Shown piece after piece: positions 25,743 through 50,668 of a stretch of 64,000 nt of DNA (positions within the stretch are counted from its first letter, which is position 1; each line of letters opens with the position of its first letter). The notes beneath the pieces are model-generated. The model saw nothing but the letters and a program-made list of their open reading frames with translations, had not been told where the DNA came from and did not search any database. Both the position numbers and the translations under genes were made by a program. The DNA comes from Candidatus Omnitrophota bacterium (GTDB taxonomy: Bacteria; Omnitrophota; Gorgyraeia; B26-G9). The stretch spans positions 17,721 to 81,720 of the forward strand of contig JAHITY010000114.1 of NCBI GenBank assembly GCA_018817165.1, read 5' to 3'.

Positions 25743-25772
25743 TTTAATTAATACCTAATTTAAGGATAATCA

Positions 25773-26669
25773 ATGCGTTTAAGCGTAATTATCGTTACCT
25801 GGAATTCCCAAAGATTTATTAATGATTGTCTGGAATCAGTATTTTCGCAGCAAATAGATGATATGGAGATAATTGTTATTGATAATGGATCATCAGACAA
25901 TACATTACAAATATTAGAAGGTTTTACTAATCGGATAATTTTGATTAAGAATCAAACCAATACTGGATTTTGCTTGGCGAATAATCAAGCGATTCTAAAA
26001 GCGCAAGGAAAGTATATTTTTACCTTAAATAGCGATGTAATTTTGGGAAAAGGATATTTGAAAAGTTTAATTGGTTGCCTTGAAACTAATAAGCAGATTG
26101 GTATGGTTCAGGGCAAGTTGCTACGATTTGATCGAAAGACAATAGATGGGCTTGGCTTGCGCTTATCTTTGCTGATGCGTTTGTATAATATTCAAGAAAA
26201 TAAGGCTGATAGTAATAAATTTGATAAGCCAAGAGAGATCTTTGGGCCCTGTGCCGCGGCTGCTGTTTATAAAAAAGAACTACTTGCTCAAATTCGTTAT
26301 CAGGATGAGTTTTTTGATGAAAAGTTTTTCTTTTTAGTCGAAGATTTTGATTTAGCCTGGCGAGCGCGGATTCGCGGATGGAAGGCAATGTATGTGCCGG
26401 ATGCGATTGCCTATCATTACCGGGAGAGTTCAGCCTATATTAATAAATTCAAACAATATCTTTCTTTTCGCAATCGATACTTTATGCTGATTAAAAACGC
26501 TGATTGGCGGCATGTTTTTATGCTGATAAGTGGTTTATTTATTTACGAATTACCCCGATTTATATACATGTTGCTATTTAATAAAAATACGATTAAGGCT
26601 CTTAAAGAAATACATGATTATTTGCCGGAACTAAGAAAAAAACGCTATAAACCAGACGGATTTTCATGA
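25773..26669 (+). CDS. GT2 family glycosyltransferase (WbbL/rhamnosyltransferase-like).
   Basis: LSVIIVTWNS...IIVIDNGSSDNT, ED(F)DL(A)WR motif; paralogous to 49675..50655. Confidence 0.7.
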   Translation: MRLSVIIVTWNSQRFINDCLESVFSQQIDDMEIIVIDNGSSDNTLQILEGFTNRIILIKNQTNTGFCLANNQAILKAQGKYIFTLNSDVILGKGYLKSLIGCLETNKQIGMVQGKLLRFDRKTIDGLGLRLSLLMRLYNIQENKADSNKFDKPREIFGPCAAAAVYKKELLAQIRYQDEFFDEKFFFLVEDFDLAWRARIRGWKAMYVPDAIAYHYRESSAYINKFKQYLSFRNRYFMLIKNADWRHVFMLISGLFIYELPRFIYMLLFNKNTIKALKEIHDYLPELRKKRYKPDGFS

Positions 26670-27775
26670 AAAAAATTACCCGCAGAGAGTTTATTAAAAA
26701 TAGCATAAGCTGGGGCGCAGTAGTGGCGGCGCAGTCTCTTTTTCCTGAATATATTTATGCTAAAGAAAAAATAATTACTCCAAGCATCGTCGGTGTAATT
26801 AAGGATAATGATATTAGAAAAGCAACGGAACAAGCTTTGGCGATAATTGGCGGAATTGGAAAAGTTGTTAAGCCAGGGCAAATGGTTTTTATTAAACCAA
26901 ATTATATTGCCGGAGGCTTGATGGGTCATGATCCGGTTACCGCTGGTGAAATTCCGCATCCGGAAGTTGTTGCTTCCGTTGCCCGCGAGTGTGTTAATGC
27001 CGGCGCGAAACATGTGATTATTGGGGAATGGTTTGAGCGGCCGCTTAATATTATCTGGCAGGGTAAAAAGAATGTTGAAGGTGCTCAAGTAAAAAAGTTA
27101 ATTGAGCGTATCAATAAAAAATACGGAGATAAGGTTTCTCTGGTTAATTTGCGCGAATATACAAAATCATTTATTTATGTTCCATCTCAAAGCAAGCTTG
27201 ATTGGCTGGCAATCCCGGATATTGTTAAAAAAGCGGATGTGGTTATATCCATAGCAGTGCTTAAGACTCATCATTGGCCGATGGCAGTTACCTTTGGAAT
27301 GAAAAATTTTATGGGAATCATGCCTTCTGTTATCTATGGAGAGCCGAGAGCTAAATTGCATGATGCCGGAATAAATCAGGTGATTGTCGATATTAATAAA
27401 GGAATAAAGCCGGCCCTGACGGTTATTAGCGGTGCTTATGGAATGGAAGGTGAAGGAGTGGTTAGATCATTTGGCGGTAAATCAGTGGATTTAATCCAAA
27501 GAATCAATGGTTGCCTGGTTATTGCTGGGTATGATCCAGTAGCTACTGATGCGACAGCAACTCGTTTAATAACCAAAGGTTGGATGCCTCAGCCCAAAGA
27601 TAATGATTTGGGTGTTCCTTGGTATATAAAACACTTACGCCTTGCTCATCAGCAGGGACTTGGGCAATTGAGACAGTCCCGGATAGAACTCCGCGGAGAG
27701 AAACTAAGCGATCTGGCAATGTCATGGCAAATGCCGATGAATAATGCATATCCGGAGTTGCCAAACTATGTTTAA
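26666..27775 (+). CDS. Tat-signal exported protein, DUF362-like domain.
   Basis: N-terminal twin-arginine motif TRREFIK followed by a hydrophobic stretch and AxA-like site; the rest resembles DUF362-type proteins (uncertain). Confidence 0.4.
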   Translation: MKKITRREFIKNSISWGAVVAAQSLFPEYIYAKEKIITPSIVGVIKDNDIRKATEQALAIIGGIGKVVKPGQMVFIKPNYIAGGLMGHDPVTAGEIPHPEVVASVARECVNAGAKHVIIGEWFERPLNIIWQGKKNVEGAQVKKLIERINKKYGDKVSLVNLREYTKSFIYVPSQSKLDWLAIPDIVKKADVVISIAVLKTHHWPMAVTFGMKNFMGIMPSVIYGEPRAKLHDAGINQVIVDINKGIKPALTVISGAYGMEGEGVVRSFGGKSVDLIQRINGCLVIAGYDPVATDATATRLITKGWMPQPKDNDLGVPWYIKHLRLAHQQGLGQLRQSRIELRGEKLSDLAMSWQMPMNNAYPELPNYV

Positions 27776-28331
27776 AAGAATTTTTAAAATTATAATAATT
27801 TGCGGCTTTGTTTTGGTACTTTTCAGCGGTAAAGCGTTAAAGGCAGAACAGGACTCTTATAATTTTCCGGTTGAAAATTGTAGCGGAAACTGGGACAAAC
27901 AGACAATAGAAGGAAAAAAAGTAATATCTACAAACGTTTCAGGCAAGATTGCGCAAATAGATCTAATAGTGCCTGAAGATGGGTATTATCAATTATATAT
28001 CAGTCTTTACCATTGCTGGCAAGAGTTTACTCCCTTTGTTTTTTTTAAAGCCAAGGATATCAAGGGAAAGCGATTTGAGGCAAATGTTTTTTCTGAGCCA
28101 AGGTGGTATCTTGATCCAGGCCAGGGACGTTGGGAATATCGCTGTATTAGTGGCAATCCTTATTGGCAGCTATCCAAGGGAATATTAAGTGTTAAATTTT
28201 GGATTGGTTCTCGTTTGTCTTGCTGGGAAGATGATAATCAAACTTCGGTTGAATCGTTTATTGCAATAGATTGTTTTATTTTGAAAAAAATTAACCAAGA
28301 AACAATGTCTCAAGATCATGTAACTCAATGA
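27768..28331 (+). CDS. Secreted hypothetical protein (signal peptide). Start moved to the ATG at 27768.
   Basis: MFKRIFKIIIICGFVLVLFSGKALKA signal-like N-terminus; 8-nt overlap with the upstream gene; Trp/Cys-containing mature domain with no recognisable family. Confidence 0.4.
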   Translation: MFKRIFKIIIICGFVLVLFSGKALKAEQDSYNFPVENCSGNWDKQTIEGKKVISTNVSGKIAQIDLIVPEDGYYQLYISLYHCWQEFTPFVFFKAKDIKGKRFEANVFSEPRWYLDPGQGRWEYRCISGNPYWQLSKGILSVKFWIGSRLSCWEDDNQTSVESFIAIDCFILKKINQETMSQDHVTQ

Positions 28332-28346
28332 AGAAGGATATGAATA

Positions 28347-29351
28347 ATGCTGAATCCTATTGTGAAAAGTACCCAAAAGGCAGACATTTTCTTTAATATT
28401 TTAGGTGCTAGAATTTTTAATAATTTCAGGCCAATTTTTGTAAATTGGCCATTAACTTATAAATGCAACTACAGATGTCCTTATTGTAAAATTTACGAAA
28501 ATCAAAGGTCCGAGCTTTCCTGTGATGATATAAAGTTGAGAATAGCTAAATTAGTAAAGTTGGGACTAAAGTGGATTATTTTTACGGGAGGAGAGCCTTT
28601 TCTTAGAAATGATTTGCCTGAGATAATTGCTGCCGCTAAAAAACATAATTTGTTTGTTTGTGTTAATTCTAACGGATCTTTTTCTCCGGAGATGCTTGGA
28701 AAATGTGGCAATATAGATCTGTTGAACCTAAGCCTGGATGGATTGGAAGAAATTCACGATAAGATACGCGGAAGAGGTGCTTTTAATCATATGCTGTCTG
28801 CTCTTGAGTCCGCGAAATTATTAAAAATCAAGGTGAAAATCACAACAACTATTCATAGAATTAATATGAATAAAATAGAAAGCATTTTGTCTTTCTGTAT
28901 AAAAAACAATATTATGCTTTCTTTTCAAATGCTTAACAGGAATTGTCTGGGGAGCAAGGAGGTAAATAATCTTTCTCTGTCAAATGCTGAATATAAACAG
29001 GCAATCAAAAATATTATTCTACTTAAAAAGTCTAAGAAATATTCTAAAGCTATATCACATTCACTAAGCTCTTTAAAATTTTTAGCCCAACGCGCTGATT
29101 TAAGTAAATTGCAATGTGCTTCTGGAAAAATTGCTTTTAGAGTTACTCCTGAGGGCAAGATGTATGCTTGTAATCATCACTCCTTTTTAAATGATAAAGA
29201 AAGTAATGGAGTAATTGATCTAAAAGAAGATTTAAAATCCATTAGACTTAAAATTAAACAATTAAGCAAATTGGATTTATCGAATTGTCATTGCTCCTGC
29301 ATGAATAGAATAAGACTTAATTTGTTATGGAATTATGGATTTGGATTTTAA
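28347..29351 (+). CDS. Radical SAM/SPASM-domain protein. Paralog of 24747 and 46114.
   Basis: LTYKCNYRCPYC, FTGGEPFLRND, CASGKIAFRVTPEG...CNHH...CHCSC. Confidence 0.75.
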   Translation: MLNPIVKSTQKADIFFNILGARIFNNFRPIFVNWPLTYKCNYRCPYCKIYENQRSELSCDDIKLRIAKLVKLGLKWIIFTGGEPFLRNDLPEIIAAAKKHNLFVCVNSNGSFSPEMLGKCGNIDLLNLSLDGLEEIHDKIRGRGAFNHMLSALESAKLLKIKVKITTTIHRINMNKIESILSFCIKNNIMLSFQMLNRNCLGSKEVNNLSLSNAEYKQAIKNIILLKKSKKYSKAISHSLSSLKFLAQRADLSKLQCASGKIAFRVTPEGKMYACNHHSFLNDKESNGVIDLKEDLKSIRLKIKQLSKLDLSNCHCSCMNRIRLNLLWNYGFGF

Positions 29352-29398
29352 AAGGATATTATAATAAAGTAAGAATAAAAGGTAGAATATAAAGAATA

Positions 29399-30922
29399 AT
29401 GCGAAAAACTAAAATAAAGCTGGCTATAATAGTTTTAATTGGATTCATGCTCCGTGTTTATAAGCTTGCTGATTTAAGCCTATGGATCAATGAAGCGAAA
29501 GTTGTTTGTTTTGCAAAAAAAGACTTGTTGTCTGTTTTTCAATTCACAGATTTTTATAGGCCAGTTTATCTTCTGTTATCAAGGATTTGGCTGAATGTTT
29601 TTGGGATGGATGAATTCTTCGTTCGGTTGCTTCCAGCTGTGTTAGGCTCTCTTTCAATTATTTTAATGTATAGAATTGGAAGGATGCTATGGGACAGAAA
29701 AACCGGATTAGTAGCTGCTTATATTTTATGCTTATCTGTTTTTCATGTTTATTTTTCTCGTCAAGGAAAAGGTGTTTCTTCTCTTTTGGTTTTTTTGTGT
29801 TTAATATCCTTCCTGTTAATGCTAAAAATACATACTAAAAAAAAGACAAAGTATTATTTCTATATTTTCTTTACTAATATTTTAATTTTATGCTCTCACC
29901 CCGTGGGGATTTTTTATGTTTTTACAGAAAAAATTTGCCATCTATTTTTAAATAATAGAAAGGTAGATATTAAATGGAATATTCTATTAATTGCTATAGG
30001 ATGTGTTTTGTTTCCCTGGTTTTATTATGTGGGATTATTTACTCCTGATAAATTTAGTGTTAATTTTCTTCCTGTTTCATTGCTTGATATAGCTAAATTT
30101 TTTGAGGTTTTTAGTTGCGGCGGACGACAGTTAGTACATGGTGGGGAAGGGTATAAACTGTCTTATGCGAGAATGATTATGCCATGGGTGCTTACATCTA
30201 TTTACTTTTCTATTTTTGTTTCAGAGCTGTTTTGTAATAAAAATAAGATAAAGAATGTATTGTTGGTATGGTTGCTGTTGCCTTTAATCTTAATTTTAAC
30301 ATATTCTTATTTTATTCAGCCGATTTATTGGCCGAGATATGTAATCTATTCATTGCCGGCGTTTTATTTGCTTTTGGCTCATTTTATAGCGGGCTTTCGT
30401 AAAGGTTGTGTCATTATTTTAGTTGCGGTTTCCTTTCTATCGATCGGTTCATTAAATAATATTTACAATCCTCAATTTAAAGAAGGTTTTAAAGAGGCAA
30501 CTTATTTTCTAAAAGATAAGTTGAAAAATAATGATATTGTTGTTTTTGCTCCGGCTGAAATGATGGCGGGTATTTTTTATTATCTAAAAAATGACGACTT
30601 GGATATTATGGGTAGAATAGATGATGATAAAGGAATGTTGTTTGATAAAAAATGGGAAACTGATTTTATATTTGAAAATAATAGATTTATTTGTTTGCAG
30701 TTTGATGATATTGCGCGATTTTCAGAGGATTTTAGTTTTGAAAAATATAATTTTGCCGGGGCCCCAGCTGATGGTATCTGGGTTTTTTATGCTCCTGATT
30801 GGGCATTGAATGAAAATTCTAAATGGTTGATTGAGCACTTAGAAGAAAATTATGAGCCTATTTTTAATGAGTTTTTTAAACGTCAAAATTTGTTTTTAAA
30901 ATATTACAGAGTTAATAAATAA
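29399..30922 (+). CDS. ArnT/PMT-like GT-C glycosyltransferase (GT39/GT83-like). A polyprenyl-phosphate-sugar donor is expected.
   Basis: N-terminal region LSLWINE...FYRPVYLLL...FG.DEFFVRLLPAVLGSLSIILMYRIGRMLWDRKTGLVAAYILCLSVFHVYFS matches the characteristic ArnT/PMT N-terminal loop and helix pattern; polytopic. Confidence 0.65.
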   Translation: MRKTKIKLAIIVLIGFMLRVYKLADLSLWINEAKVVCFAKKDLLSVFQFTDFYRPVYLLLSRIWLNVFGMDEFFVRLLPAVLGSLSIILMYRIGRMLWDRKTGLVAAYILCLSVFHVYFSRQGKGVSSLLVFLCLISFLLMLKIHTKKKTKYYFYIFFTNILILCSHPVGIFYVFTEKICHLFLNNRKVDIKWNILLIAIGCVLFPWFYYVGLFTPDKFSVNFLPVSLLDIAKFFEVFSCGGRQLVHGGEGYKLSYARMIMPWVLTSIYFSIFVSELFCNKNKIKNVLLVWLLLPLILILTYSYFIQPIYWPRYVIYSLPAFYLLLAHFIAGFRKGCVIILVAVSFLSIGSLNNIYNPQFKEGFKEATYFLKDKLKNNDIVVFAPAEMMAGIFYYLKNDDLDIMGRIDDDKGMLFDKKWETDFIFENNRFICLQFDDIARFSEDFSFEKYNFAGAPADGIWVFYAPDWALNENSKWLIEHLEENYEPIFNEFFKRQNLFLKYYRVNK

Positions 30923-30939
30923 TATTTAAGGAAAAAGTC

Positions 30940-32829
30940 ATGTGTGGAATTTGTGGTAAATTTTTTTATTCAACGGATAAGCGGGTCAACGAAAAAACTA
31001 TTTATGATATTTGTCAAAGTTTGTATAGAAGAGGCCCTGATGATGAAATCATTAAGGTTTATCGAAATGTTGGATTAGGGATGCGGCGACTTTCGATTGT
31101 AGATGGAGAAAGACAATTATGCTTGAGAAATGAAGATGCTACTATTTTTCTTGTATTTAATGGGGAAATATATAATTCTAAGGATTTTATAAATACCTTG
31201 ATTAGTAAGGGACATAAATTTAATTTTAATAATGATGTTGAGTGTATAATCCATTTATATGAAGAATTTGGGCTTGATTTTATTAGTAAACTAAATGGAA
31301 TGTTTTCTTTAGCTTTATTTGATAGTAGCTTGAATAGACTTATACTTGTTAGGGATAGAATTGGGATTAAACCATTGTATTATAGCGAGATTAATGGGGG
31401 GATTGTGTTTTCTTCGACTCTAAAGTCGTTATTATTAAATAACGAAATATCTAAGGAGTTAGATATTAGAGCATGCAATCATTATTTTTCGTATAATTAT
31501 TTTCCGCTTGAATATACTCCGATTTCTTCAATAAGAAAGCTTTTACCTGGACATTTTTTGGTTTGTGATAATAATGGCTTAAAGATTGAAAAGTTTTGGG
31601 AATTTAGGTATAAAAATAAAGACAGTAAAAAGAAAACTTTGGATGATTATAGCAATGAATTTAAAGTATTATTTAATGAAGTTATGGCAACACAGATTAA
31701 TGCTGATCATTCACCAGGAATATTTTTAAGCGGAGGCCTGGACTCATCGACAATAGCATATTTTCTTTCTAAACAAGGTAAAAATATTAAATCATTTAGT
31801 CTTGGGTTTGCGGAAGAATCTTTTGATGAACGAGAGTATTCAAGGAATATTGCTAATAGGTTTCAGTTTGATTATTATGAGATGGTCGTTAATGAAAATT
31901 TAAATAAACTGGTTGATGATTTTTCAGAAAGTTTGGATATTCCTGTGGGGGAACCTTCGTTTATTAATATGCTTTCTATTTCAGCTTTTTCTGCAAAGCA
32001 TGTAAAGACTGTTTTTTCTGGTGATGGTGCTGATGAATTGTTTGGAGGATATAGCCAGTATTTTGCTGATTCGATGATGCATAATTTTAACTTAGTCCCT
32101 AGTTTTTTAAAAAAAATGATTGTTGATCGTATAATCAATAATTCATCGTTATCTTATTCCTGGATGAATAGAAAGTCTAAGTTTGAGGCCGTCTTAAATG
32201 CTCTTGAAAGAAAGGAAACTATTCCGCACTATATTTTTAGAGAAAATTTCAGTATTGATGATAAATCAGATTTATATTCTAATGTTTTTTACAGCCAAAT
32301 GAAACAAAAAAATCATCTTAATGATCCGTATCTGGTTTTCAAAAAAAAGTATTCGGAGGCAAATACAAATAATTATCTGGAACAAGCCATGTATTTTGAT
32401 ACTACGATTTGTTTACCGGATGGTATGTTGCAAAGGGTCGATATGGCTAGTATGTATCATTCATTAGAAGTGAGAGTTCCGTTTTTGGATAATCGGATTA
32501 TTAATTTTGCTCAATCACTGCCACTTAGTTTAAAGATACGTAATTTGAAGGGCAAGTGTATATTAAAAAACGTGATGTCAGATTCTCTCTCGAAGCACAT
32601 GATTAATCGACGTAAGCATGGTTTTAGTGTGCCAATTGGAAAGTGGTTGAAGGATGAACTGGCAATATTCGCTAAAGATATTGTTAATTCGAAAAATTTA
32701 AGGGGATATGATCTTTTAAATAAGCAATATGTAGTTAATCTTTTGGATGTTCATTTGAAAGGGAAAGTAGATAATGGCAGGAAATTATGGAATATATTAG
32801 TATTTCTATTGTGGTTAGATAATATATAA
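30940..32829 (+). CDS. Asparagine synthase (glutamine-hydrolysing)-family amidotransferase.
   Basis: N-terminal MCGICG nucleophile; PP-loop SGGLDSS; ~630 aa. In glycan clusters, WbpS-like homologs amidate uronic acids. Confidence 0.8.
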   Translation: MCGICGKFFYSTDKRVNEKTIYDICQSLYRRGPDDEIIKVYRNVGLGMRRLSIVDGERQLCLRNEDATIFLVFNGEIYNSKDFINTLISKGHKFNFNNDVECIIHLYEEFGLDFISKLNGMFSLALFDSSLNRLILVRDRIGIKPLYYSEINGGIVFSSTLKSLLLNNEISKELDIRACNHYFSYNYFPLEYTPISSIRKLLPGHFLVCDNNGLKIEKFWEFRYKNKDSKKKTLDDYSNEFKVLFNEVMATQINADHSPGIFLSGGLDSSTIAYFLSKQGKNIKSFSLGFAEESFDEREYSRNIANRFQFDYYEMVVNENLNKLVDDFSESLDIPVGEPSFINMLSISAFSAKHVKTVFSGDGADELFGGYSQYFADSMMHNFNLVPSFLKKMIVDRIINNSSLSYSWMNRKSKFEAVLNALERKETIPHYIFRENFSIDDKSDLYSNVFYSQMKQKNHLNDPYLVFKKKYSEANTNNYLEQAMYFDTTICLPDGMLQRVDMASMYHSLEVRVPFLDNRIINFAQSLPLSLKIRNLKGKCILKNVMSDSLSKHMINRRKHGFSVPIGKWLKDELAIFAKDIVNSKNLRGYDLLNKQYVVNLLDVHLKGKVDNGRKLWNILVFLLWLDNI

Positions 32830-32852: not shown

Positions 32853-33848
32853 TTAATTCAGTAATTTATTTTTTAGAAGGAAGTAGTTTATTTTTTTAGC
32901 TGCAATTTGATGCGCTATTTCATTAGGATGATGGTCCGTTGGGTTAACCCATAATTGCCGGTCTTTATATGAACGATATAAGGGGGAAAGATCAATAAAG
33001 GCGATATTCTCTTTTTCGCAAAATTGTTTAAGCTTGCTATGAATTGTTTGAAATGGATAATTGTCTAGTTTGTAGAGTAGAGGAAATAAAACAATCATTA
33101 ATCTGCTATTCTTTGCTTCGATTTTTTTATTTAAACTTTTTAGTTTTTCAAAGTTCTTTTTCTCATTTTCGCCCTCAAAGGAATTTATATAAGTAGAAAT
33201 AGTATTTTTAGTTAATTGCTGCTCTTCCTGGAAATTTAAAAAAGCGTTAATTATTGAGGAATATTTTCTAATCTTCCAGTATTTGTATCCGCCATTATTG
33301 AAATCGATCAGGTTATTGCCATGAATTTGGTCTTGGTCGTCCGCCATAAAGTCGTTAAGAGTGAATCCATAAATAACAAGATTAAATGAATTTTTTGATG
33401 ATTCTATATCATATGTTTTTACAATATCGTTTAGATTATCGCCTCTTTTGGCACAGTTTTTTATGTCAGCATCAATATTATTATCTTGTAAAAGCTGTTT
33501 TAATATTTCTAAATAAATGTCTTTATATTTTACTCCTTGCCCATACATAAAAGAATCTCCCAGCCCGAGGATAGCTTTGGTGGTGGAATTCTTACTTGAT
33601 ATATTTTTTTTAGGAGAGATACGATATCCTTCTGGCGAATTATTATAATTTAAGCCATAAATTATAGAATTATTGATAGTTTTGATAGGGATATGATAGT
33701 TTCTGGGATTTGTAAAGTATTCGGTGCTGTTATTGTTAAACATATAATAGGGGGTAGAGTAAATATGTAATAATATTTCAGCACAGATTATGCTAATAAT
33801 GCTGGACAATCCTAATAATATTAGTTTTTTCTTGATGGAATTTGACAT
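32853..33848 (-). CDS. Membrane-anchored SGNH/GDSL-family hydrolase (possible sugar O-acyl esterase or acyltransferase).
   Basis: N-terminal TM helix; GLGDSFMYG (GDS block I); C-terminal DHHPNEIAH (DxxH block V). Confidence 0.55.
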   Translation of the reverse strand: MSNSIKKKLILLGLSSIISIICAEILLHIYSTPYYMFNNNSTEYFTNPRNYHIPIKTINNSIIYGLNYNNSPEGYRISPKKNISSKNSTTKAILGLGDSFMYGQGVKYKDIYLEILKQLLQDNNIDADIKNCAKRGDNLNDIVKTYDIESSKNSFNLVIYGFTLNDFMADDQDQIHGNNLIDFNNGGYKYWKIRKYSSIINAFLNFQEEQQLTKNTISTYINSFEGENEKKNFEKLKSLNKKIEAKNSRLMIVLFPLLYKLDNYPFQTIHSKLKQFCEKENIAFIDLSPLYRSYKDRQLWVNPTDHHPNEIAHQIAAKKINYFLLKNKLLN

Positions 33849-34027: not shown

Positions 34028-35395
34028 TTGAAAGAAACCAAACTTTATCTTATAGATCCTTTTGGGTCATCTAATAAATTTCTTCCGCATCGTCATTTTT
34101 TAAGAGATTGGAGTGGTTCTTATAACACTGCTGATATAGTGTTCCCACCCTTAGATCTGATGTATTTGTCCTCATATCTCAAAAAAAATGGCTATCAAAC
34201 TGAAATAATTGAGGCAAGCAACAAACATCTTTCCCCAAATAAGGTTGTCGAGATTTTAATTAAAGCGCAGCCGAATTTTGTTTTGATCCCCAGTACTTAT
34301 TTCAGTATTGAAGATGATAAGGCCTTGGCTAAAATCATTAAAAAAAACGTAGCGAAGGCTAAAATTATATTTTCCGGCCCATTGGTTACCTATGATCCCG
34401 CAGTGGTTTTAGATGAAGATATTGCTGATTTTGTTGCTTTGGGAGAATTAGAATCAGCCGTGATTAATATCGTAGAACAGAGAAATTATGATAATGTTGC
34501 TTTTAAAAAAGACGGCGAAATAATAAGAGGGGATCGTGTTCTGATCGATATTGATACGCTTCCTATCCCTGATAGAGAATCAATAGATAATGATTCATAC
34601 CGATATGCTGTATTTAATAAGCGAAATCCTGTAACAGCAATGACTATAAGCAGAGGGTGTCCGCACAGTAAATGCTTATTTTGTCCATCAGGACTGTTTA
34701 CTTTAGGTGAAATAAGGTATCGGCCAAAACAAGAAATCTTTAAAGAATTAGAAGAGTTGAAAGATAAATATAATATTGGGGAAATATTTTTTAGGGATCA
34801 AGCCTTTACAGCTAATAGAGATCTTGTGGTTGAAATTTGTAACTATATGTTAAAAAATGGTTTTGATATTTTATGGAGAGCGACCACTCGAGTTGATTTA
34901 GTTGATAAAGAATTGCTGTTATTGATGAAAAAGGCTGGCTGTTATCAAATATCTTTTGGATTTGAGACAAATTTGCAGGAAGTTTTGGATGCTAATAAAA
35001 AGGGAATTACTGTGGAACAGTCAAAATCCGCCGCAAAATGGGCTAAAGAAGCAGGGATGGAAATCCTAGGACTTTTTATGACCGGAATGGATAAAGATAA
35101 TGTGAATAATTCCAGAAATCTTTATGAGTTTATGTTGGAGCTAGATGTGGATTATGTGAGTGTTAATAATTGCTTGCTTTTTCCCGGGGCAAGCCTTTAT
35201 AAAGAACATAGTGAAAAATCAAAAATCATTCCTTATCAAGAAGTCAAAAGTAAAGCCGGATTTTCTCCGGAAGTAAGATTTTATATGAGACCGAGCTATT
35301 TATTCAGACAGCTAAAAAAAATCAGAACAATCTCAGATATGAGGTTCATGCTTAAAGCAGGTTTTAATATCTTAATGTCAGGTTTTAGAAAATAG
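34028..35395 (+). CDS. B12-binding domain radical SAM protein. The start codon is uncertain (TTG in the track).
   Basis: B12-binding-like N-terminus (VFPPLDLMYLSSYLKKNGYQTEIIEA); Cys cluster SRGCPHSKCLFC (Cx4Cx2C spacing, atypical). Confidence 0.7.
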   Translation: MKETKLYLIDPFGSSNKFLPHRHFLRDWSGSYNTADIVFPPLDLMYLSSYLKKNGYQTEIIEASNKHLSPNKVVEILIKAQPNFVLIPSTYFSIEDDKALAKIIKKNVAKAKIIFSGPLVTYDPAVVLDEDIADFVALGELESAVINIVEQRNYDNVAFKKDGEIIRGDRVLIDIDTLPIPDRESIDNDSYRYAVFNKRNPVTAMTISRGCPHSKCLFCPSGLFTLGEIRYRPKQEIFKELEELKDKYNIGEIFFRDQAFTANRDLVVEICNYMLKNGFDILWRATTRVDLVDKELLLLMKKAGCYQISFGFETNLQEVLDANKKGITVEQSKSAAKWAKEAGMEILGLFMTGMDKDNVNNSRNLYEFMLELDVDYVSVNNCLLFPGASLYKEHSEKSKIIPYQEVKSKAGFSPEVRFYMRPSYLFRQLKKIRTISDMRFMLKAGFNILMSGFRK

Positions 35396-35449
35396 ATATT
35401 AAAAAAGTTTTATGGATCGCTTGTATGCTAAAAATGGGAGTAGAATAAG

Positions 35450-37048
35450 TTGAAAAAATTAGAACAAATCGATTGTCTGCTGATACATACCCCCAAACTC
35501 AATAATTTCTATAGTTTATATGGAAATTTTATGTTTGTCATGTATATAAGCTATGGATTATTTTCTCTATCTTCTTTTTTAAACAAAAATGGTATTAGTT
35601 CCAGGATACTTCATTTAGGGGTAGAGTATATAAAAGAAGGAAAAATAGATTTAAATAAATATATTCCCAAGAATAAACATATAATTGTTGGTTTGTCCCT
35701 GCATTGGAATCACCAGTCTTATGACGTGATTGAAGTAGCCCGAAAAATAAAATCAATAAATAAAAATGTTTATATTGTTTTGGGAGGTATGACTGCGAGT
35801 ATTTTTGATGTTGAGATATTAGAAGAATTTCCTTTTGTTGATGGAATTATTCGCGGTGACGGGGAAGTGCCATTACTTAAGCTTTTTGACTTTAAAAATC
35901 AATCGGATAAAAACCTAGTGCCGAATTTGACATGGCGCAAAGATAATGAAATTATCAGGAATTCATTGGATTATGTCTCGACAAGTGATGACTTAAATAA
36001 ATATGATTTTGCGGCAATAGATAATTTGATTGATTATGATGTGTATAGAGACCGGATTTTACACATTTTCCATTGCAAAGATATTCCTTTTTTTATGGCA
36101 AAAAATCTTATTGGAAAAGACTATATGTTTTTTCCTCTGCTGGTAGTCAAGGGTTGTACTGCTGAATGCTCTTATTGCGGGGGGAGCTACTCTTCTCAAT
36201 TAAAAATCAGCGGAAGGAAACATATAATTTATCAATCCCCGGAAAAAGTTTTAGAGGCTATAAAGAAGCTGAAAACTTTTGGATTTAATGGAGTTTATAT
36301 AATTTTTGATCCTGTATACGGGCAGCATGATTATTTTTATGAACTTTTTGCCTTTATTTCCAAAAACAAACTTAAAATAGCCTGCGGGTTTACATTGCAT
36401 AGTTTGCCGGAAAATGAATTTTTAAAATTATTTAAAGATACTTTTTGTTCAGAAAAGGGATCTTTTCTAGAAATAACAATAGAGTCTCATGATGAAATCG
36501 TACGGAAGAAAAATAAAAGTTTTTTTTATAGCAATGATGAGTTCTTTGACTTTTTAAGTAGATGCGATAGCTATAATATTCCTTTAAAAGTCTTTTTAAG
36601 CATTGGCATGCCCTTTCAAAATCATAACGAAGAATATTCTAAAGCAAATAATGCGTTTGAAAGAAAAATTAAAAGCTTTAAAAATGCTATAAAAGTCAGC
36701 TATTCTGTTGTTGATATAGATCCGTATTCTCCTGCTTATCTGAATCCGGAAAAGTTTAATCTGGAATTGAAAAAAAATAAATTCACGGATTATTATGCCC
36801 ATCACAAAATATCACATAAGCGCAATTTTCCGGCTGCTGGGTTTTCAGATATAACGCAGATAGTTTTAGGGGATGGGTTTTGTTTTAATGAAGAAAAACT
36901 TATTGATATAAAATGTGAATATTCTTGTCAATTAAATATTTTGTTAAGAAGGATGCATATTAGGCTGCCTTCATTTATTTATAAGAAGATTTGTAAAATT
37001 ATTAGTTTTTTTTGGAGATTTTCTAAGAAAATAGAGGTAAAAATTTGA
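35450..37048 (+). CDS. B12-binding domain radical SAM protein (TTG start).
   Basis: VVKGCTAECSYCGG motif; N-terminal B12-binding-like fold pattern; TTG preceded by GGGAG-like Shine-Dalgarno. Confidence 0.75.
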   Translation: MKKLEQIDCLLIHTPKLNNFYSLYGNFMFVMYISYGLFSLSSFLNKNGISSRILHLGVEYIKEGKIDLNKYIPKNKHIIVGLSLHWNHQSYDVIEVARKIKSINKNVYIVLGGMTASIFDVEILEEFPFVDGIIRGDGEVPLLKLFDFKNQSDKNLVPNLTWRKDNEIIRNSLDYVSTSDDLNKYDFAAIDNLIDYDVYRDRILHIFHCKDIPFFMAKNLIGKDYMFFPLLVVKGCTAECSYCGGSYSSQLKISGRKHIIYQSPEKVLEAIKKLKTFGFNGVYIIFDPVYGQHDYFYELFAFISKNKLKIACGFTLHSLPENEFLKLFKDTFCSEKGSFLEITIESHDEIVRKKNKSFFYSNDEFFDFLSRCDSYNIPLKVFLSIGMPFQNHNEEYSKANNAFERKIKSFKNAIKVSYSVVDIDPYSPAYLNPEKFNLELKKNKFTDYYAHHKISHKRNFPAAGFSDITQIVLGDGFCFNEEKLIDIKCEYSCQLNILLRRMHIRLPSFIYKKICKIISFFWRFSKKIEVKI

Positions 37049-38469
37049 AGGTATTGCTTATTAATCCTGGAATGGACTTAAATAAATTTGGTGGCTTTAA
37101 AAGGTTTATGCAGCCTATGCCTCCGATTGGTTTGGCTTATCTTGCAGGAGTTTTAAAAGAGAATCAGATAGAATTTAAGGTTATTGATGATTTTGCTGAG
37201 AATAGTGGAATCAAAGGTATATGCGAAGCTGTTAAAAACTATTCACCCACAGTGGTAGGTATTTCTTGTTTGACTCCTTCAGCTGATTATGTATTAAGTA
37301 TCGCTCAGAGCATAAAAAGTATCAATAAACAAATAAAAGTTTTAGCGGGGAATCTGCATGCATCTATTTTTGCCGAAGAATTTCTTAAGACCGGCTATGT
37401 GGATATTGTCTTTCACGGAGAATCAGAATATTCTTTTCTTTCAGTAGTAAAATCTATCAGTAATAATGGTGATTTAAGCCAAATCAAGGCTATTTCCTTT
37501 AGAGACAATGATAAAATTAATCATAATTTTGAAAATAAGTTTTTGACTGATTTGGATGCTTTGCCTTATCCTGACTGGGAAAGTTTTCCGATTGATAAGT
37601 ATGGGTTTTTGCCATTTATGGATATTAATAAACCTGCGCTTAGTGTGTTGGCTTCAAGAGGATGTCCGTTTAGCTGTTCATATTGTTCTTTGGTGTATAA
37701 TAATGTTCCATTTAGGAGTAGAGATCATGAAAGGGTAGTTGATGAAATCGAGTTTTTGATAAACAGATATAATGTCAAACAAATTGGATTTGTTGATCCC
37801 ATTTTCCCTTGTAATAAAGAGTATGGGGTAAAATTTTGTCAGAGTATGATAAAAAGAAAGTTGAACAAAAAAATAGTTTGGATCAGCGAGACGCGTATTG
37901 ATTGTGTTGATATGGAGCTTTTAGAATTAATGAGGGAATCTGGCTGCCGTAGATTATTGTTTGGAATCGAAACAGCTAATTTAGATGTAATGGGACAAAT
38001 AAATAAGAATATTCCGCTTGAAAAAATAAGAAAAAATATTTCTTTGGTTAGAAAGGCAGGAATACAAAGCACAGGGCTTTTTATGATTGGGTTTCCGTCT
38101 GAAACAAAAAAAGATATTATGAATACTATAGATTTTGCCAATAAATTAGAACTTGATTTCGCGAAATTTGCGATAACCACGCCTTTCCCCGGGAGCAGAT
38201 TGTTTGTGGATTTTTTCAAAAATAATAAACTCAGGAAAGATTGGGAAAATTATATCACTTATAATCCAGATCCAAGTAAATTAGTTTCAGTGAATGAGAA
38301 ATTAACGGCTCAGGAGTTGATTGATTTGCAAAGAATAGCGCATAGGAAATTTTATTTTAGGATTAAAATGATATTTTGGCATCTTTTTGTGATTAGGACA
38401 GTTAAGTTAAAGGATATGTTTTTTGGTATTGGAAGCTTGTTTTTTCACGGAAAATTTAATAAAAAATAG
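37045..38469 (+). CDS. B12-binding domain radical SAM protein (TTG start).
   Basis: LKVLLINPG...PPIGLAYLAGVLKENQIEFKVIDD; ASRGCPFSCSYC; AGAGG Shine-Dalgarno 8 nt upstream of the TTG; 4-nt overlap with the upstream gene. Confidence 0.8.
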   Translation: MKVLLINPGMDLNKFGGFKRFMQPMPPIGLAYLAGVLKENQIEFKVIDDFAENSGIKGICEAVKNYSPTVVGISCLTPSADYVLSIAQSIKSINKQIKVLAGNLHASIFAEEFLKTGYVDIVFHGESEYSFLSVVKSISNNGDLSQIKAISFRDNDKINHNFENKFLTDLDALPYPDWESFPIDKYGFLPFMDINKPALSVLASRGCPFSCSYCSLVYNNVPFRSRDHERVVDEIEFLINRYNVKQIGFVDPIFPCNKEYGVKFCQSMIKRKLNKKIVWISETRIDCVDMELLELMRESGCRRLLFGIETANLDVMGQINKNIPLEKIRKNISLVRKAGIQSTGLFMIGFPSETKKDIMNTIDFANKLELDFAKFAITTPFPGSRLFVDFFKNNKLRKDWENYITYNPDPSKLVSVNEKLTAQELIDLQRIAHRKFYFRIKMIFWHLFVIRTVKLKDMFFGIGSLFFHGKFNKK

Positions 38470-38477
38470 GTTTATTA

Positions 38478-39514
38478 TGAATAAAAAAGTATTGATTGCC
38501 GGAGGTGCGGGATTTTTAGGTTGCAGAGTGAGTGAGTATTTACTGCAAAATGGATTTGATATAAAAATCATAGATAATACACAGGAGAACGTGTCCATTC
38601 CTGATAGTGTTGAGTTTGTTCGGGGGGATATTAGAGATTATGATTTTTTACAGCAGGAGCTTTTGGGTATAGATTATGTTATTAATGCTATAGGCATACA
38701 ACCGTTTTCTGATTCAAAAGATATCTATTCTGTTAATGTTGAAGGGACGAGAAGTCTGCTTAAAGCATCAAAAGAGCATAGCGTGAAGCGGTTCGTGCAT
38801 ATTTCTTCATCGGCGGTTTATGGGATTCCTGAATTTTCACTTTTGAGTGAAGAGTATCCTTTTAAAGGGAAGGGGGCTCACTGTGAAAGTAAAATATTAG
38901 CTGAACAGAATTGTGAAAGCTTTCGTAAACAAGGGATGGTTGTAACTATTTTTCGGGCACCGCCGCTTATTGGACCAGGAAGGTTGGGAATATTCAGTGT
39001 TTTTTTTAATTGGGTAGAAGAAAAGCGCGCTATACCTTTGATAGGAAGGGGAAATAATAAGATACAATTTTTGGGTGTTGATGATTTATGTGATGCGATA
39101 CTCAAAGCTTTGATGTCTTCGGAAGAGAAGGTCAATGATACTTTTAATATTGGAGCAGAAGATTTTAACTCAATAAAGGATGATTTAACTGCTTTTATTA
39201 AAGGTGAAAATTCTTATGCTAAAATAATAAGTTTTCCTTCGGGCTTCATTAAGTTTATATTGATTGTATTTGAGAAATTAAAAATATCTCCTTTTTATAA
39301 GGGGGTTTATGAAATATTTGATAAAGATATTTCCTTGTCTGTTAAGAAAATCAATAAGCAATTATCCTGGAGAGCAAAACAAAGTAATGTCGATGCCTTG
39401 AGAAGCGGATATAAATGGTATTTAAAGAATAAAGACTTACCAGAATATTTAAAGAATACAAATAGAGGCTATATGAGACAGGGGATTTTAGGAATCGTCA
39501 GAAGATTATTTTAA
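38478..39514 (+). CDS. NAD(P)-dependent epimerase/dehydratase (SDR family). Start moved to the ATG at 38478.
   Basis: VLIAGGAGFLG Rossmann motif near the N-terminus; extended-SDR length (~345 aa). Confidence 0.65.
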
Positions 39515-40957
39515 TAATTTTCTTATATATATTTTTAAAAGAAGAAAAATTATTCTAAATTGCTGTATTATTATTGAATAAGTGAACTTGGATTTAAGCA
39601 TTTTTAAAATATATGCTGGTCTTAGGTAAAATGCATGCATTGTTTTTTTTGACCAGCTGGTTAATTCTTCGTATGATAAATCAGTTTCTTGTGGTTTCCA
39701 CATGTGTGCAGGTATATCTTTACCTAAATAAGATTCTAGCCAAAGATCTCTTCCGGTATTTAGTTTTATATTCTCAGCCATATATGTTTCAGGTAAAGCA
39801 AGTACTACATTGAATTGAGCGAAATGCAAAGGTATTTCCTTGGCGAAATTAATAGTGTCTTCAATAGTCTTAGAAGTTTCTCCCTTGTTCCCAATCATGA
39901 AAAATCCAAGAGTAAGAAGTCCTTTTTTTTCAGTCAGGGTGACAGCTGTTCTTATTTGCTCTAATGTTATTTTTCGGTTTAAATTATTGAGGATTGTTTG
40001 ATTTCCTGATTCAATGCCATAGTGTATGCTAATACACCCTGCTTCGACGAGCTTGTCAATTATCTCTTCATCAACTAAATCAACGCGTGTGCGGATGACC
40101 CATTTTACTTTAAGACGTTTTTTTATGATAAGATTACATAAATCTATGGTTTTTTTTCTATCGATAGTAAATGTCGAATCAAGGAATGCAATTTCTTTGA
40201 TCTTATATTTATTTTGACACTCTTCCATCTCGAGTACTATTTTTTCATTGCTGCTTGATTGATATTTAATTGTTTTATCAATACAATATGTGCAAGAATA
40301 TGGACAACCAATGCTTGCAGTCATGGTTGTGAATTTATCATGTAATGTTAATGCACTATTATAAATATTATTGTCAATAAGTTCTCTTGCTGGCATCGGT
40401 AATAGGTTAAAGTCAAATTGATTCTCATCTTCGGTTTTTACTGTTTTCCCGTCGGAGGTCCTGTATATTATTCCTTTTATATTGTTTGTGGCTTGATTTC
40501 TGGCTATTTTATCAATTAATTCAGTGCTGGCTGTAAATCCTTTTCCGGTTAAAGCATAATCAATATGTTTATTGAGAATTGTTTGTTCAGGGTAAAGCCG
40601 CGGGAAATGACCGCGAGCTATTAGCTTGCAGTTAAGATTATCCTTAAGTATTTTGAGTGATTTAAACTCATTTTGAGGGTTAAATATGTTTATAGTAGAA
40701 AATAGTATGTCAGGCTGAAATTTCTTGCATAGTTTTAGTATTTTTTCGACTGTTAACCCTGCTAATTCACCATCAAGAAGCAAAATATCATGGCCCTGTT
40801 TTTTAAACAAGCTGGCCTGGTAAAGAAGACCGAGCGGGGGGTAACGCACAAACCATTCACAATAAAGGTGTGCCCCCAAGTATCCTCCAGGACTAGTGAT
40901 CCGTGAGGCACTTGATTGATTATATGCTATTGGCAATCTTAGTAAAATAATTCTCAT
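39506..40957 (-). CDS. B12-binding domain radical SAM protein (minus strand).
   Basis: YPPLGLLYQASLFKKQGHDILLLDGE; ASIGCPYSCTYC; 3' end overlaps the convergent gene by 9 nt. Confidence 0.8.
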   Translation of the reverse strand: MRIILLRLPIAYNQSSASRITSPGGYLGAHLYCEWFVRYPPLGLLYQASLFKKQGHDILLLDGELAGLTVEKILKLCKKFQPDILFSTINIFNPQNEFKSLKILKDNLNCKLIARGHFPRLYPEQTILNKHIDYALTGKGFTASTELIDKIARNQATNNIKGIIYRTSDGKTVKTEDENQFDFNLLPMPARELIDNNIYNSALTLHDKFTTMTASIGCPYSCTYCIDKTIKYQSSSNEKIVLEMEECQNKYKIKEIAFLDSTFTIDRKKTIDLCNLIIKKRLKVKWVIRTRVDLVDEEIIDKLVEAGCISIHYGIESGNQTILNNLNRKITLEQIRTAVTLTEKKGLLTLGFFMIGNKGETSKTIEDTINFAKEIPLHFAQFNVVLALPETYMAENIKLNTGRDLWLESYLGKDIPAHMWKPQETDLSYEELTSWSKKTMHAFYLRPAYILKMLKSKFTYSIIIQQFRIIFLLLKIYIRKLLK

Positions 40958-44236: not shown

Positions 44237-45508
44237 ATGAAAATAATGCTAATCCAGCCAGATAGAAGGCGGCATAGATCTTTTTTGGAGCAACCTCTTG
44301 CCATAGCGATTTTAGCTGCATTAACCCCTAAAGATATTGAAGTGGAATTTTATGATGAGGGTTTGGAAAAAATTCCTTATTATAGGAAAACAGATTTAGT
44401 TGCTATAACGGTAAATATTTTTACTGCTAAAAAAGCTTACGAAATTTCCCGCGAATTTAAAAAGTATAATGTGCCGGTGGTTTTAGGAGGGATTCATCCG
44501 TCATTGGTTCCAGAAGAAGCAATTCAGTATTGTGATTCTGTGGCTATTGGAGAAGCTGAGGAAATATGGTTAAAGATAATTGGCGATCTTAAAATTAATA
44601 AGTTGAAAAGGTTCTATGTCAGTTCAGGCCGTGCAGAATTAGATGGGATTTTACCTATGAGAGATATTTTTAAAGGTAAAAAGTATTTACCATATCATTT
44701 GGTGGAATTTGGAAGAGGATGCCGGCATAGTTGTAGTTTTTGTGCAGTAAGTTCTTTTTATAAAAGCACCTATACTCATAGGTCGATAAAAGATTTAATT
44801 CGTGAGATTAAAGGACTTGAGCGGGGAAAATTATTCTGTTTTGTAGATGATAATATAGCTATGGATTCGGAAGTTACCAAGAATATGCTTAGGGAACTTT
44901 GTAAACTGAACGTAAAATGGATGGGGCAGGCTAGTACGAAAATTATTTACGATAAGGAGCTGCTAGATTTAATGGCGAAAAGTGGTTGTCTTTGGTTGCA
45001 TATTGGGTTTGAAGCGATAGATAATCAAACACTTAAGAGGTACAATAAACATCATAATTTAGGGGTAGATTATGGTGAATTAGTGAACCAACTTAGGGAA
45101 AGAGGCATTTCTGTGCACGGAACATTTATTTTTGATTGGAAACATTCTGATCAATTGATTTTTTCTAGAACACTTGAGTTCGCTTTGAAATATAAACTTT
45201 TTTATGCAGGGTTTAATTTGTATTCTCCTATTCCTGGGACTCCATTGTATAAGGAATTGTTATTGAATGGAGAGATTTGTTCGGAGCCGTGGTGGTTGAT
45301 TGGTAATCGTGAATTCGTAAATAAAATGGTGGGGATGGAAAGAATTAAACAAGAATGTACTAATATTTCTATGAAGTTTTACAAGGTGACATCAATACTT
45401 AGAAGAGTTGAGTTTAAAGCTAATTTTCGGAGTTGTTTTAAGGCTCTATTTTTTCTCTTTATAAATTTTATAAAGAAAATTGGTTGTGCCAAAAAGAAAA
45501 ATATTTAA
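44237..45508 (+). CDS. B12-binding domain radical SAM protein.
   Basis: MKIMLIQPD...LAIAILAALTP...VEFYDE; FGRGCRHSCSFC. Confidence 0.75.
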   Translation: MKIMLIQPDRRRHRSFLEQPLAIAILAALTPKDIEVEFYDEGLEKIPYYRKTDLVAITVNIFTAKKAYEISREFKKYNVPVVLGGIHPSLVPEEAIQYCDSVAIGEAEEIWLKIIGDLKINKLKRFYVSSGRAELDGILPMRDIFKGKKYLPYHLVEFGRGCRHSCSFCAVSSFYKSTYTHRSIKDLIREIKGLERGKLFCFVDDNIAMDSEVTKNMLRELCKLNVKWMGQASTKIIYDKELLDLMAKSGCLWLHIGFEAIDNQTLKRYNKHHNLGVDYGELVNQLRERGISVHGTFIFDWKHSDQLIFSRTLEFALKYKLFYAGFNLYSPIPGTPLYKELLLNGEICSEPWWLIGNREFVNKMVGMERIKQECTNISMKFYKVTSILRRVEFKANFRSCFKALFFLFINFIKKIGCAKKKNI

Positions 45509-46113: not shown

Positions 46114-47106
46114 ATGAGGATAAAAGATAAGATTTATTGTGCTTATTCTATTTTAAAATCTAGGATTTTGAATGTTAGAATTCCTTTGGCTGTGCGTTGG
46201 CAATTGACAAATAAATGCACCTTGCGTTGTAAGTATTGCAATATCTATGATAAGGGGGGTAGCGAATTAGGCTTAAGTCAGGTAAAGGATGTTTTATGTC
46301 AGTTGAAAGGTTTGGGAACAAAACGCATATCTTTTAGTGGTGGGGATGTTTTGTTAAGAGACGATTTTTCTGAAATACTAGACTGCTGTATCGATTATGG
46401 TATTTATCCGGAGTTAAATTGTAACGGTGTTTTATTTTACGACAAAGCGCATAAGCTAAAAAAACTGGATTTTGTTAAGTTTAGTTTGGATGGACCGAAG
46501 CAGGTGCATGATTCTTTGAGAGGGGATGGGTCATTTGATAAGGTTATGAAATCTGTTGAGGCTTGCTTGAAAAACAAAATAAAATTTGGATTTGCGATGA
46601 CATTAACAAAATTCAATATTAATGATTTAGATTTCTTGCTGCAGACCGCTAAAAAATATGAGACTATTGTTGCTTTTCAGCCAGTTAAATCAATGCATAA
46701 AGGCATTGAAGGAATTGATGAATTTTTAGGTTCTGAAGAAGTTTTTAGAAAGGCGTTAAAGAAGCTTATCCTAGAAAAAGGAAGAGGATGTGAAAATATA
46801 CGTAATTCGATGAGGGAGTTGAAATATATTTATGATTGGCCGAATTTAAAAGAGATGAAATGCTATGCTGGGCAGATTTTTTGTATAATTGGCCCTGATG
46901 GAGATGTCTATCCTTGTGATCGGGTTGATGGTTTTATGAATAACACCATTTTGCCAAATTGTCAAAAACTGGGGATAGAAGAGGCGATAAGGCAGTTGCC
47001 TGAATTTTATTGTAAAGGGTGCGGGTTTTGCGGGGCATTAGAATTAAATCATTTAATGAATTTTAAATTCGGTGTGCTTAAGTCAATAAAAAGGATAATA
47101 TCTTGA
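46114..47106 (+). CDS. Radical SAM/SPASM-domain protein. Paralog of 24747 and 28347.
   Basis: QLTNKCTLRCKYC; FSGGDVLLRDD; C-terminal CYAGQIFCIIGPDGDVYPCD...CKGCGFCG. Confidence 0.75.
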   Translation: MRIKDKIYCAYSILKSRILNVRIPLAVRWQLTNKCTLRCKYCNIYDKGGSELGLSQVKDVLCQLKGLGTKRISFSGGDVLLRDDFSEILDCCIDYGIYPELNCNGVLFYDKAHKLKKLDFVKFSLDGPKQVHDSLRGDGSFDKVMKSVEACLKNKIKFGFAMTLTKFNINDLDFLLQTAKKYETIVAFQPVKSMHKGIEGIDEFLGSEEVFRKALKKLILEKGRGCENIRNSMRELKYIYDWPNLKEMKCYAGQIFCIIGPDGDVYPCDRVDGFMNNTILPNCQKLGIEEAIRQLPEFYCKGCGFCGALELNHLMNFKFGVLKSIKRIIS

Positions 47107-50655: not shown

Positions 50656-50668
50656 TGAAAGCAAATAA

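Follow-up and report, generated by a model that had tools for sequence, protein, structure and literature searches.

Introduction

To our knowledge, the class-B radical S-adenosylmethionine (SAM) proteins, which join a B12-binding domain to a radical SAM domain, are among the largest uncharacterized groups of enzymes, and almost all of those we know to have been characterized stem from antibiotic, cofactor or lipid pathways. BchE, the anaerobic Mg-protoporphyrin cyclase, and HpnJ, which carries out the ring contraction of the hopanoid cyclitol ether and acts on a lipid-bound amino sugar (the glucosamine head group), are both non-methylating. In apramycin biosynthesis the C3'-deoxygenation of paromamine is performed by AprD4, a radical SAM 1,2-diol dehydratase, together with the reductase AprD3. 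The substrate of AprD4 is an aminoglycoside sugar and its reductase partner is NADPH-dependent (PMC5461906). The class I B12-dependent radical SAM enzymes share an N-terminal Rossmann domain followed by the radical SAM domain and hold cobalamin in the base-off state, with neither a protein ligand nor a consensus motif, and AprD4 and ArsL carry the related domain yet bind no cobalamin (PMC12931638).

In this study we analyze a 64-kb stretch of DNA (the window) from the metagenome-assembled genome (MAG) of an uncultivated Candidatus Omnitrophota bacterium (NCBI name "Candidatus Omnitrophica bacterium"), in which three class-B radical SAM genes in tandem (A, B and C) are followed by a gene of the short-chain dehydrogenase/reductase (SDR) superfamily (E) and by a fourth class-B gene on the opposite strand (D). 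We find that the products of A to D are members of a known superfamily that stand in a conserved, previously undescribed module linked to glycan genes. On balance we favor the reading that A-B-C-E and D form a module of radical tailoring enzymes whose substrates are sugar or lipid-linked sugar intermediates in the making of an envelope glycoconjugate. Domains were called with Pfam on the approximately 48 open reading frames (ORFs) of the window. Proteins identical to those of the window also occur on a JGI contig, on an ENA contig and in the Logan assembly of SRR6514274, and the best species-level genome matches of gene C are Omnitrophota, at 49-57% identity.

Gene Structure of the Array

The five genes of the array are as follows.

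Gene A, 34028..35395, plus strand: 455 aa, B12-binding (PF02310) and Radical_SAM (PF04055) domains.
Gene B, 35450..37048, plus strand: 532 aa, PF02310 and PF04055; the most divergent of the set.
Gene C, 37045..38469, plus strand: 474 aa, PF02310 and PF04055.
Gene E, 38477..39514 (ORF from 38423), plus strand: 345 aa from the ATG (363 aa from 38423), extended SDR (PF01370).
Gene D, 39506..40957, minus strand: 483 aa, Radical_SAM and a sub-threshold B12-binding match.

The original prediction placed three consecutive B12-type radical SAM genes at 34028, 35450 and 37045, and both the coordinates and the presence of the two domains in each product are confirmed by the ORF table and Pfam. It assigned TTG starts to the last two of these genes; for B and C, the motifs GGGAG and GAGGT as ribosome-binding sites and the N-termini of homologues back this: homologues of C begin MKVLLINP, and the N-terminus of B aligns with its homologues upstream of an alternative ATG. 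Gene A also begins at TTG, as there is no ATG before codon 45 and its orthologues align from residue 1. The junctions had been described as overlapping, which holds for B and C (4 nt, TTGA), the sole overlap among the three tandem genes, but not for A and B, which are 54 nt apart. E most likely starts at the ATG at 38477 (MNKKVLIAGGAGFLG), 7 nt past the stop codon of C, and hence does not overlap C; public gene callers differ on this start (345 aa versus 361 aa). The fourth B12-type gene lies, as proposed, on the opposite strand, its 3' end (39506) overlapping that of E (39514) by 9 nt in convergent orientation. The best reading of this arrangement is that A-B-C-E are one plus-strand operon on whose 3' end D converges. 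Promoter and terminator scans of the 32.8-41.3 kb region stayed at shuffle level and gave nothing usable.

The radical SAM domain scores above the Pfam cut-off in A, B, C and D. The B12-binding domain does so in A (47.2 bits), B (38.4 bits) and C (68.8 bits), whereas D reaches 24.7 bits against a cut-off of 32.1; the same domain is below cut-off in two further B12-type proteins of the window (R1 and R2, listed below). The canonical CxxxCxxC cluster motif is present in B, C and D.

Paralogy and the Conserved Neighborhood

Besides the array, the original prediction listed five further B12-type radical SAM genes at 2235, 19103, 23206, 44237 and 47391. All five encode the same two domains by Pfam; five additional radical SAM genes that encode no B12 domain had been overlooked. 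The ten genes are the following, all called with Pfam.

R1, 2235..3869, plus strand: B12-domain radical SAM.
R2, 19103..20569, plus strand: B12-domain radical SAM.
R3, 23206..24708, plus strand: B12-domain radical SAM; closest paralog of D.
R4, 44237..45508, plus strand: B12-domain radical SAM, 423 aa.
R5, 47391..48926 (ORF start 47379/47391), plus strand: B12-domain radical SAM; its orthologues normally lie directly beside those of C.
46..2238, plus strand: radical SAM with SPASM, no B12 domain, 730 aa.
10518..11579, plus strand: radical SAM with SPASM, no B12 domain.
24747..25742, plus strand: radical SAM, no B12 domain.
28347..29351, plus strand: radical SAM, no B12 domain.
46114..47106, plus strand: radical SAM with a weak SPASM match, no B12 domain.

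The nine B12-type proteins are only distantly related to one another. Pairwise identities lie between 20 and 34%, the closest pair being D and R3 (34%), and in a neighbor-joining tree A, B, C, D and R5 each group with orthologues from other genomes and not with one another. These identities and the tree rule out that the array arose by recent tandem duplication and uphold the earlier view that the genes are divergent paralogs and not recent duplicates. Such old, separate paralogs would fit distinct substrates or positions. A, C, D and R5 each form an orthologous family of their own, and these families co-localize in other Omnitrophota.

The families differ in breadth. Family C is large and strongly conserved: it gave 1,931 matches at E<=1e-10 among the candidates scored, with full-length identities of 42-57% in Omnitrophota, Elusimicrobiota, Myxococcota and "Deltaproteobacteria". 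Family D is narrow, with one 50%-identity representative at 60% and the next at 35%. As a gauge of the size of the class-B group, gene D alone matches 43,701 representative clusters. Family A comprises approximately 60 clusters at 42-56% identity, after which scores drop from 435 to 295 bits; it appears to be restricted to Omnitrophota, as all members with a source name are Omnitrophota or Omnitrophica. Homologues of gene B were found at 33-35% identity in two related loci (L023 and L088).

The co-localization is clearest on three Omnitrophota contigs (L002, L003 and L007), where the orthologues, marked with a prime, run in the order E' (43-44% identity), D' (55-56%, convergent), A' (52-53%), R5' (67-68%) and C' (56-57%), followed in L002 and L003 by a second copy of A (49%) after C'. 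Set beside these contigs, the array of the window reads as a rearranged version of a conserved module, in which B occupies the slot of R5 and R5 itself lies 10 kb downstream. A further locus (L092) groups R5', C' and two copies of A' with a PMT family gene, a GDSL gene and two Peptidase_U32 genes; R5'-C' pairs also stand in the glycosyltransferase (GT)-rich loci L087 and L088, and GDSL proteins recur beside orthologues of A, C and R5 in L087, L088, L091 and L092. R5' and C' are the only consistently conserved neighbors: they are directly adjacent in about one third of approximately 55 related loci from four phyla (Omnitrophota, Elusimicrobiota, Myxococcota and "Deltaproteobacteria"), and the loci with this two-gene cassette include L002, L004, L005, L007, L008, L016, L020, L021, L023, L029, L052, L087, L088 and L092. 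Four loci add a UbiE-like methyltransferase to the pair, and four others U32 (UbiU/V-like) proteins. A metagenome scan with D for adjacency to E returned only three distant loci (32-37% identity).

Relation to Characterized Radical SAM Enzymes

In NCBIfam, the top partial matches of A, C, D and R2 to R5 are BchE and HpnJ, with scores of 84-205 bits where the cut-offs are 481 and 578; for BchE (TIGR02026) and HpnJ (TIGR03471), respectively, C scores 205 and 173 bits, A 164 and 135, and D 143 and 155. AprD4, PhpK, ApyD and QCMT-type models score close behind. Gene B best matches the uncharacterized family TIGR04190 (Ta0216-type B12 radical SAM; 201.2 bits versus a cut-off of 500), and R1 a subfamily of C-methyltransferases of peptides that are made ribosomally and modified after translation (RiPPs), as a partial match of 136 bits versus 282. 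BchE and HpnJ are thus the highest-scoring profiles for most of the set, but the scores are far below cut-off and the window holds no chlorophyll or hopanoid genes; no squalene-hopene cyclase or other hpn gene was found among the approximately 48 ORFs scanned with Pfam. Membership of a hopanoid, chlorophyll or aminoglycoside cluster is ruled out by the sub-cut-off scores together with the missing pathway genes.

Searched against the sequences of the PDB, A, C and D find AprD4 (6FD2) as their best match, with E-values of 1e-23 to 1e-30, and then QCMT (9CCB). Further matches are TokK and CysS for C, TsrM for D, and Elp3 and, weakly, OxsB for A; the same search with gene B gave no match. AlphaFold2 models of C and D (pLDDT 90.7 and pTM 0.90 each) predict a Rossmann-like N-terminal domain of five strands alternating with helices, then a radical SAM barrel, and helices at the C-terminus. 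In Foldseek AprD4 ranks first for both, with full-length TM-scores of 0.72-0.77 (0.74-0.77 for C), followed by TsrM, QCMT/MgmA, OxsB, CysS and TokK at a probability of 1.0 and TM-scores of 0.6-0.7. The class-B architecture that the original prediction gave to the four genes is therefore borne out by the Pfam domains and by the predicted folds of C and D, both of which contain the Rossmann fold that it had anticipated. The proteins show no clear grouping with either methylating or non-methylating B12-type radical SAM enzymes, where clustering with the latter alone had been named as evidence against the prediction.

With AprD4, the best structural match, A, C and D share a compact size of 450-480 aa, the Rossmann-like N-terminus and the radical SAM barrel, and E might be to D the nicotinamide-dependent redox partner that AprD4 has. 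They differ from it in that identity is approximately 21%, that the AprD4 family model (NF033070) gives 136.1 bits for D, 103.2 for C and 102.4 for A (102-136 bits, below the cut-off of 500), and that the window is an envelope glycan locus whereas AprD4 belongs to an aminoglycoside cluster. The class I B12-dependent enzymes (TokK, TsrM, OxsB, QCMT/MgmA and CysS) resemble A to D in domain order and folds, and in the CxxxCxxC motif of B, C and D; identity to them is 13-19%, A to D lack the additional C-terminal domains that TokK, TsrM and OxsB carry, and the motif of A is Cx4Cx2C.

This motif of gene A (CPHSKCLFC, codons 211-219) replaces CxxxCxxC and is kept, as CPH[SG]xCxFC, in 60 of 60 members of family A, whereas all 120 members examined of family C are canonical. 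The spacing of the cluster motif in Elp3 is similar to Cx4Cx2C. Gene A has weak matches to Elp3 in both the PDB and NCBIfam.

The SDR

Gene E encodes an extended SDR (PF01370, 129.8 bits versus a cut-off of 20.9) with the nucleotide-binding GxxGxxG present as GGAGFLG at residues 9-15, and it matches HpnA weakly in NCBIfam. The SSSAVYG segment is present, but His occupies the position of the catalytic Tyr of YxxxK (AHCESK, at approximately residues 134-139). The same replacement occurs in the D-linked orthologues of E in the Omnitrophota loci L002 and L007, whereas Tyr is kept in 119 of 120 other homologues of E (40-44% identity, from many phyla). The gene had been named an NAD-dependent epimerase following C; an SDR does stand there, and since it has His for Tyr, "epimerase" is only a family label.

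Glycan Context and Fusion Proteins

Genes A to E are part of a chromosomal cell-surface sugar-polymer locus of approximately 52 kb with an exceptional radical SAM load: 14 radical SAM genes within approximately 49 kb, nine of the B12 type and five encoding no B12 domain. Nine B12-type genes among the approximately 48 genes of the window are far beyond chance on a rough estimate, as about 0.5 would be expected if some 1% of the genes of the genome were of this type. By Pfam, the radical SAM genes are interspersed with two GT1 and four GT2 glycosyltransferase genes, and five membrane transferase genes of the PMT_2/GT-C type. Single genes for a DegT aminotransferase, an AsnB-type amidotransferase, a carbamoyltransferase, a GDSL hydrolase and a small SAM methyltransferase lie among them too, as do those for a DUF362 protein and a Wzy_C/O-antigen-ligase-like protein with TPR. 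The glycan-assembly genes interleaved with radical SAM genes span 4313..32829 on the plus strand, and directly downstream of the locus stands the dcw (division and cell wall) cluster, from mraZ to ftsW (52699-63317). The features of the locus are listed here by position or start, again as called with Pfam.

GT1 glycosyltransferases, starts 4313 and 18015, plus strand.
GT2 glycosyltransferases, starts 5485 and 25773, plus strand.
Carbamoyltransferase, start 6441, plus strand.
Five PMT_2/GT-C membrane transferases, starts 8889, 12126, 13519, 16254 and 29399, plus strand: 9-11 hydrophobic segments.
SAM methyltransferase, start 11576, plus strand.
DegT aminotransferase, start 14933, plus strand.
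DUF362 protein, 26666..27775, plus strand.
AsnB-type amidotransferase, start 30940, plus strand.
GDSL/SGNH hydrolase, 32853..33848, minus strand: divergent from gene A.
Two GT2 glycosyltransferases and the Wzy_C/O-antigen-ligase-like membrane protein with TPR, 48983..52342, plus strand: end of the locus before dcw.

The locus resembles O-antigen and capsule loci in its GT1, GT2, DegT, AsnB-type, carbamoyltransferase, SGNH hydrolase and Wzy_C genes. It differs from them in that radical SAM genes number 14 and GT-C (PMT_2) genes at least five, and in that Wzx, Wzz, an ABC exporter and an initiating transferase go unrecognized. We know of no characterized surface-polysaccharide locus with such a radical SAM load.

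A further tie to glycosyltransferases comes from natural fusions. Among the relatives of D, one protein of 2,633 aa (P0275) joins a B12-binding domain, two radical SAM domains, DUF362, ferredoxin, three GT1/GT4 domains and TPR; a second of 1,826 aa (P0354) has the same architecture with one GT1, and a third of 2,279 aa (P0336) consists of a radical SAM-SPASM unit followed by four B12-type radical SAM units. The latter two each have a second member in another assembly (P0391 and P0392, respectively), and P0275 stands on a single ENA contig. As read from these architectures, the fusions link class-B radical SAM domains functionally to glycosyltransferases, to DUF362/ferredoxin and to one another. 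Their DUF362/ferredoxin unit is plausibly an electron donor, and the DUF362 protein encoded at 26666 in the window is a candidate redox partner.

Other Features of the Window

G+C content is 0.29-0.35 over most of the glycan locus (1-52342), two 2-kb bins of which reach 0.38-0.39; the adjoining dcw cluster (52699-64000) has 0.37-0.39. GC skew is strongly positive across the window, and the GDSL gene and D are the only genes on the minus strand. Two polytopic membrane proteins (20762-22273 and 42071-43921), with 9-10 hydrophobic segments and no Pfam match, could be unrecognized GT-C transferases or flippases.

Several kinds of intergenic repeat were seen. A 147-nt element at 4035-4181 and 17739-17885, its copies 97% identical and each upstream of a GT1 gene (4313 and 18015), folds into a stable multi-stem structure (minimum free energy -49 kcal/mol, z -3.6). 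Rfam holds no match to it (with the gap 3870-4312 scanned at E<=1), the loci fetched for comparison contain no copy, and it may be either a regulatory RNA acting in cis or a repeat element. Rfam gave no match over the whole window at the gathering threshold. GC-rich hairpin repeats (e.g., GTAGGGGCCG...CGGCCCC) at 3890-4030, 52334-52452, 63312-63457, 56285-56407 and 58002-58118 look REP-like or terminator-like; they include inverted copies on both sides of the dcw block, as well as a repeat that follows both ftsI and murE, at 80% identity. Two minus-strand mini-ORFs (45505-45645 and 47241-47360), downstream of R4 and of the radical SAM-SPASM gene, both encode "WRPVPRK.KPKP" and are probably a repeated intergenic DNA element and not a pair of genes.

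Proposed Function and Alternatives

On the precedent of class-B radical SAM enzymes and of AprD4/AprD3, the proposed tailoring of sugar intermediates would run as follows. Each radical SAM protein would bind a [4Fe-4S] cluster, A via its Cx4Cx2C motif, and the cluster would cleave SAM reductively to a 5'-deoxyadenosyl radical, which, on a sugar or lipid-linked sugar intermediate, would attack an unactivated C-H and take its hydrogen. For members that hold cobalamin in the Rossmann domain, methyl transfer would follow (C-methylation), while members that, like AprD4, hold none would dehydrate, rearrange or epimerize the substrate. An NAD(P)-dependent redox step would come from the SDR E, whose most plausible partner is D; by analogy only, the D-E pair recalls the dehydratase AprD4 and AprD3, its reductase partner, which depends on NADPH (PMC5461906). 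The GT1 and GT2 enzymes would assemble the tailored sugars, and the GT-C (PMT_2) and Wzy_C-like proteins would export or attach them.

Several observations weigh against this proposal. Pfam recognized no nucleotidyl-sugar synthase, Wzx or ABC exporter, or initiating phosphoglycosyl transferase in the window. None of the nine B12-type proteins reaches a curated NCBIfam cut-off, so that no reaction is assignable to them, and E lacks the catalytic Tyr of YxxxK. Pairing of D and E is seen in two lineages only. In the Myxococcota and "Deltaproteobacteria" loci checked (L005 and L006) no glycan genes lie near the R5-C pair, so that the substrate of R5 and C need not be a glycan. Finally, cobalamin binding is not readable from the sequence, and the nearest structure, AprD4, is one that binds no cobalamin (PMC12931638). 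With AprD4 as the nearest structure and no consensus motif to consult, cobalamin binding and methyl transfer by A to D are possible but unproven.

More tentatively, Omnitrophota and some Elusimicrobiota might possess an undescribed anoxic "radical glycan-editing" pathway, in which a dedicated set of radical SAM enzymes would extensively edit the sugars of a cell-surface glycoconjugate, built from the R5-C cassette, the Cx4Cx2C family A and an AprD4/AprD3-like D-E pair with a Tyr-to-His SDR, the whole pathway being fused to GT and DUF362-ferredoxin units in some lineages; this wider proposal is a speculative one.

The same cobalamin question bears on the alternative that all four proteins, indeed all nine, are cobalamin-dependent C-methyltransferases acting on different positions or sugars of one product. 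Most characterized class-B enzymes are methyltransferases (PMC12931638), A, B and C have the class-B architecture with PF02310 above cut-off, and the paralogs are ancient and distinct. The partial NCBIfam matches can be read in both directions: they include PhpK, Sden_1168, QCMT-type and RiPP C-methyltransferase families, but the top ones of A, C, D and R2 to R5 are to BchE, HpnJ and AprD4, all of them non-methylating, and AprD4, which binds no cobalamin, is the best sequence match of A, C and D and the best fold match of C and D. Considering also that D, R1 and R2 fall below the Pfam cut-off for the B12 domain and that the cluster motif of A is non-canonical, we regard methylation by the entire set as unlikely.

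We give rather little credence to a role in membrane lipids, in which the radical SAM proteins would perform alkyl methylation, cyclization or cross-linking (compare GrsA/B, Gmm, HpnP/R/J and "ladderane-like" clusters) and the glycosyltransferases would make glycolipid head groups. Class-B radical SAM proteins are known lipid-tailoring enzymes in archaea and hopanoid producers (PMC11214058), and "Ladderane" biosynthetic gene cluster calls are reported in Omnitrophota MAGs (PMC9902471). Most of the paralogs have HpnJ as their first or second match and E matches HpnA weakly, yet all scores are far under the HpnJ, HpnR and ladderane cut-offs. Likewise, the R5-C pair is conserved in Myxococcota outside a GT context, sometimes with a UbiE-like methyltransferase, while the fusions link radical SAM domains with GT1 glycosyltransferases and not with lipid enzymes, and Pfam finds no genes for isoprenoids, fatty acids, a squalene-hopene cyclase or ether lipids in the 64 kb.

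That the locus instead modifies a peptide or protein, by RiPP-like maturation or through radical chemistry and glycosylation on a surface protein, is improbable: a radical SAM-SPASM gene beside a B12-type gene is typical of RiPP clusters (46-2238 with R1; 46114 with R5), R1 best matches a RiPP C-methyltransferase subfamily, protein O-mannosyltransferases fall within PMT_2 and related loci often have TPR fusions, but there is no credible precursor among the ORFs of at least 25 aa in the gaps at 43.9-47.4 kb (around R4, the radical SAM-SPASM gene and R5), Pfam recognizes no leader peptidase, RiPP recognition element or ABC exporter in the window, and the DegT, carbamoyltransferase and AsnB genes point to a glycan.

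Significance

Targets for heterologous expression are family A with its Cx4Cx2C motif, the R5-C and D-E pairs, and the natural fusions of radical SAM and glycosyltransferase domains. A conserved class-B module in the envelope-glycan loci of a phylum that is uncultivated and perhaps dependent on hosts would speak for new anaerobic sugar chemistry and for unusual surface structures.

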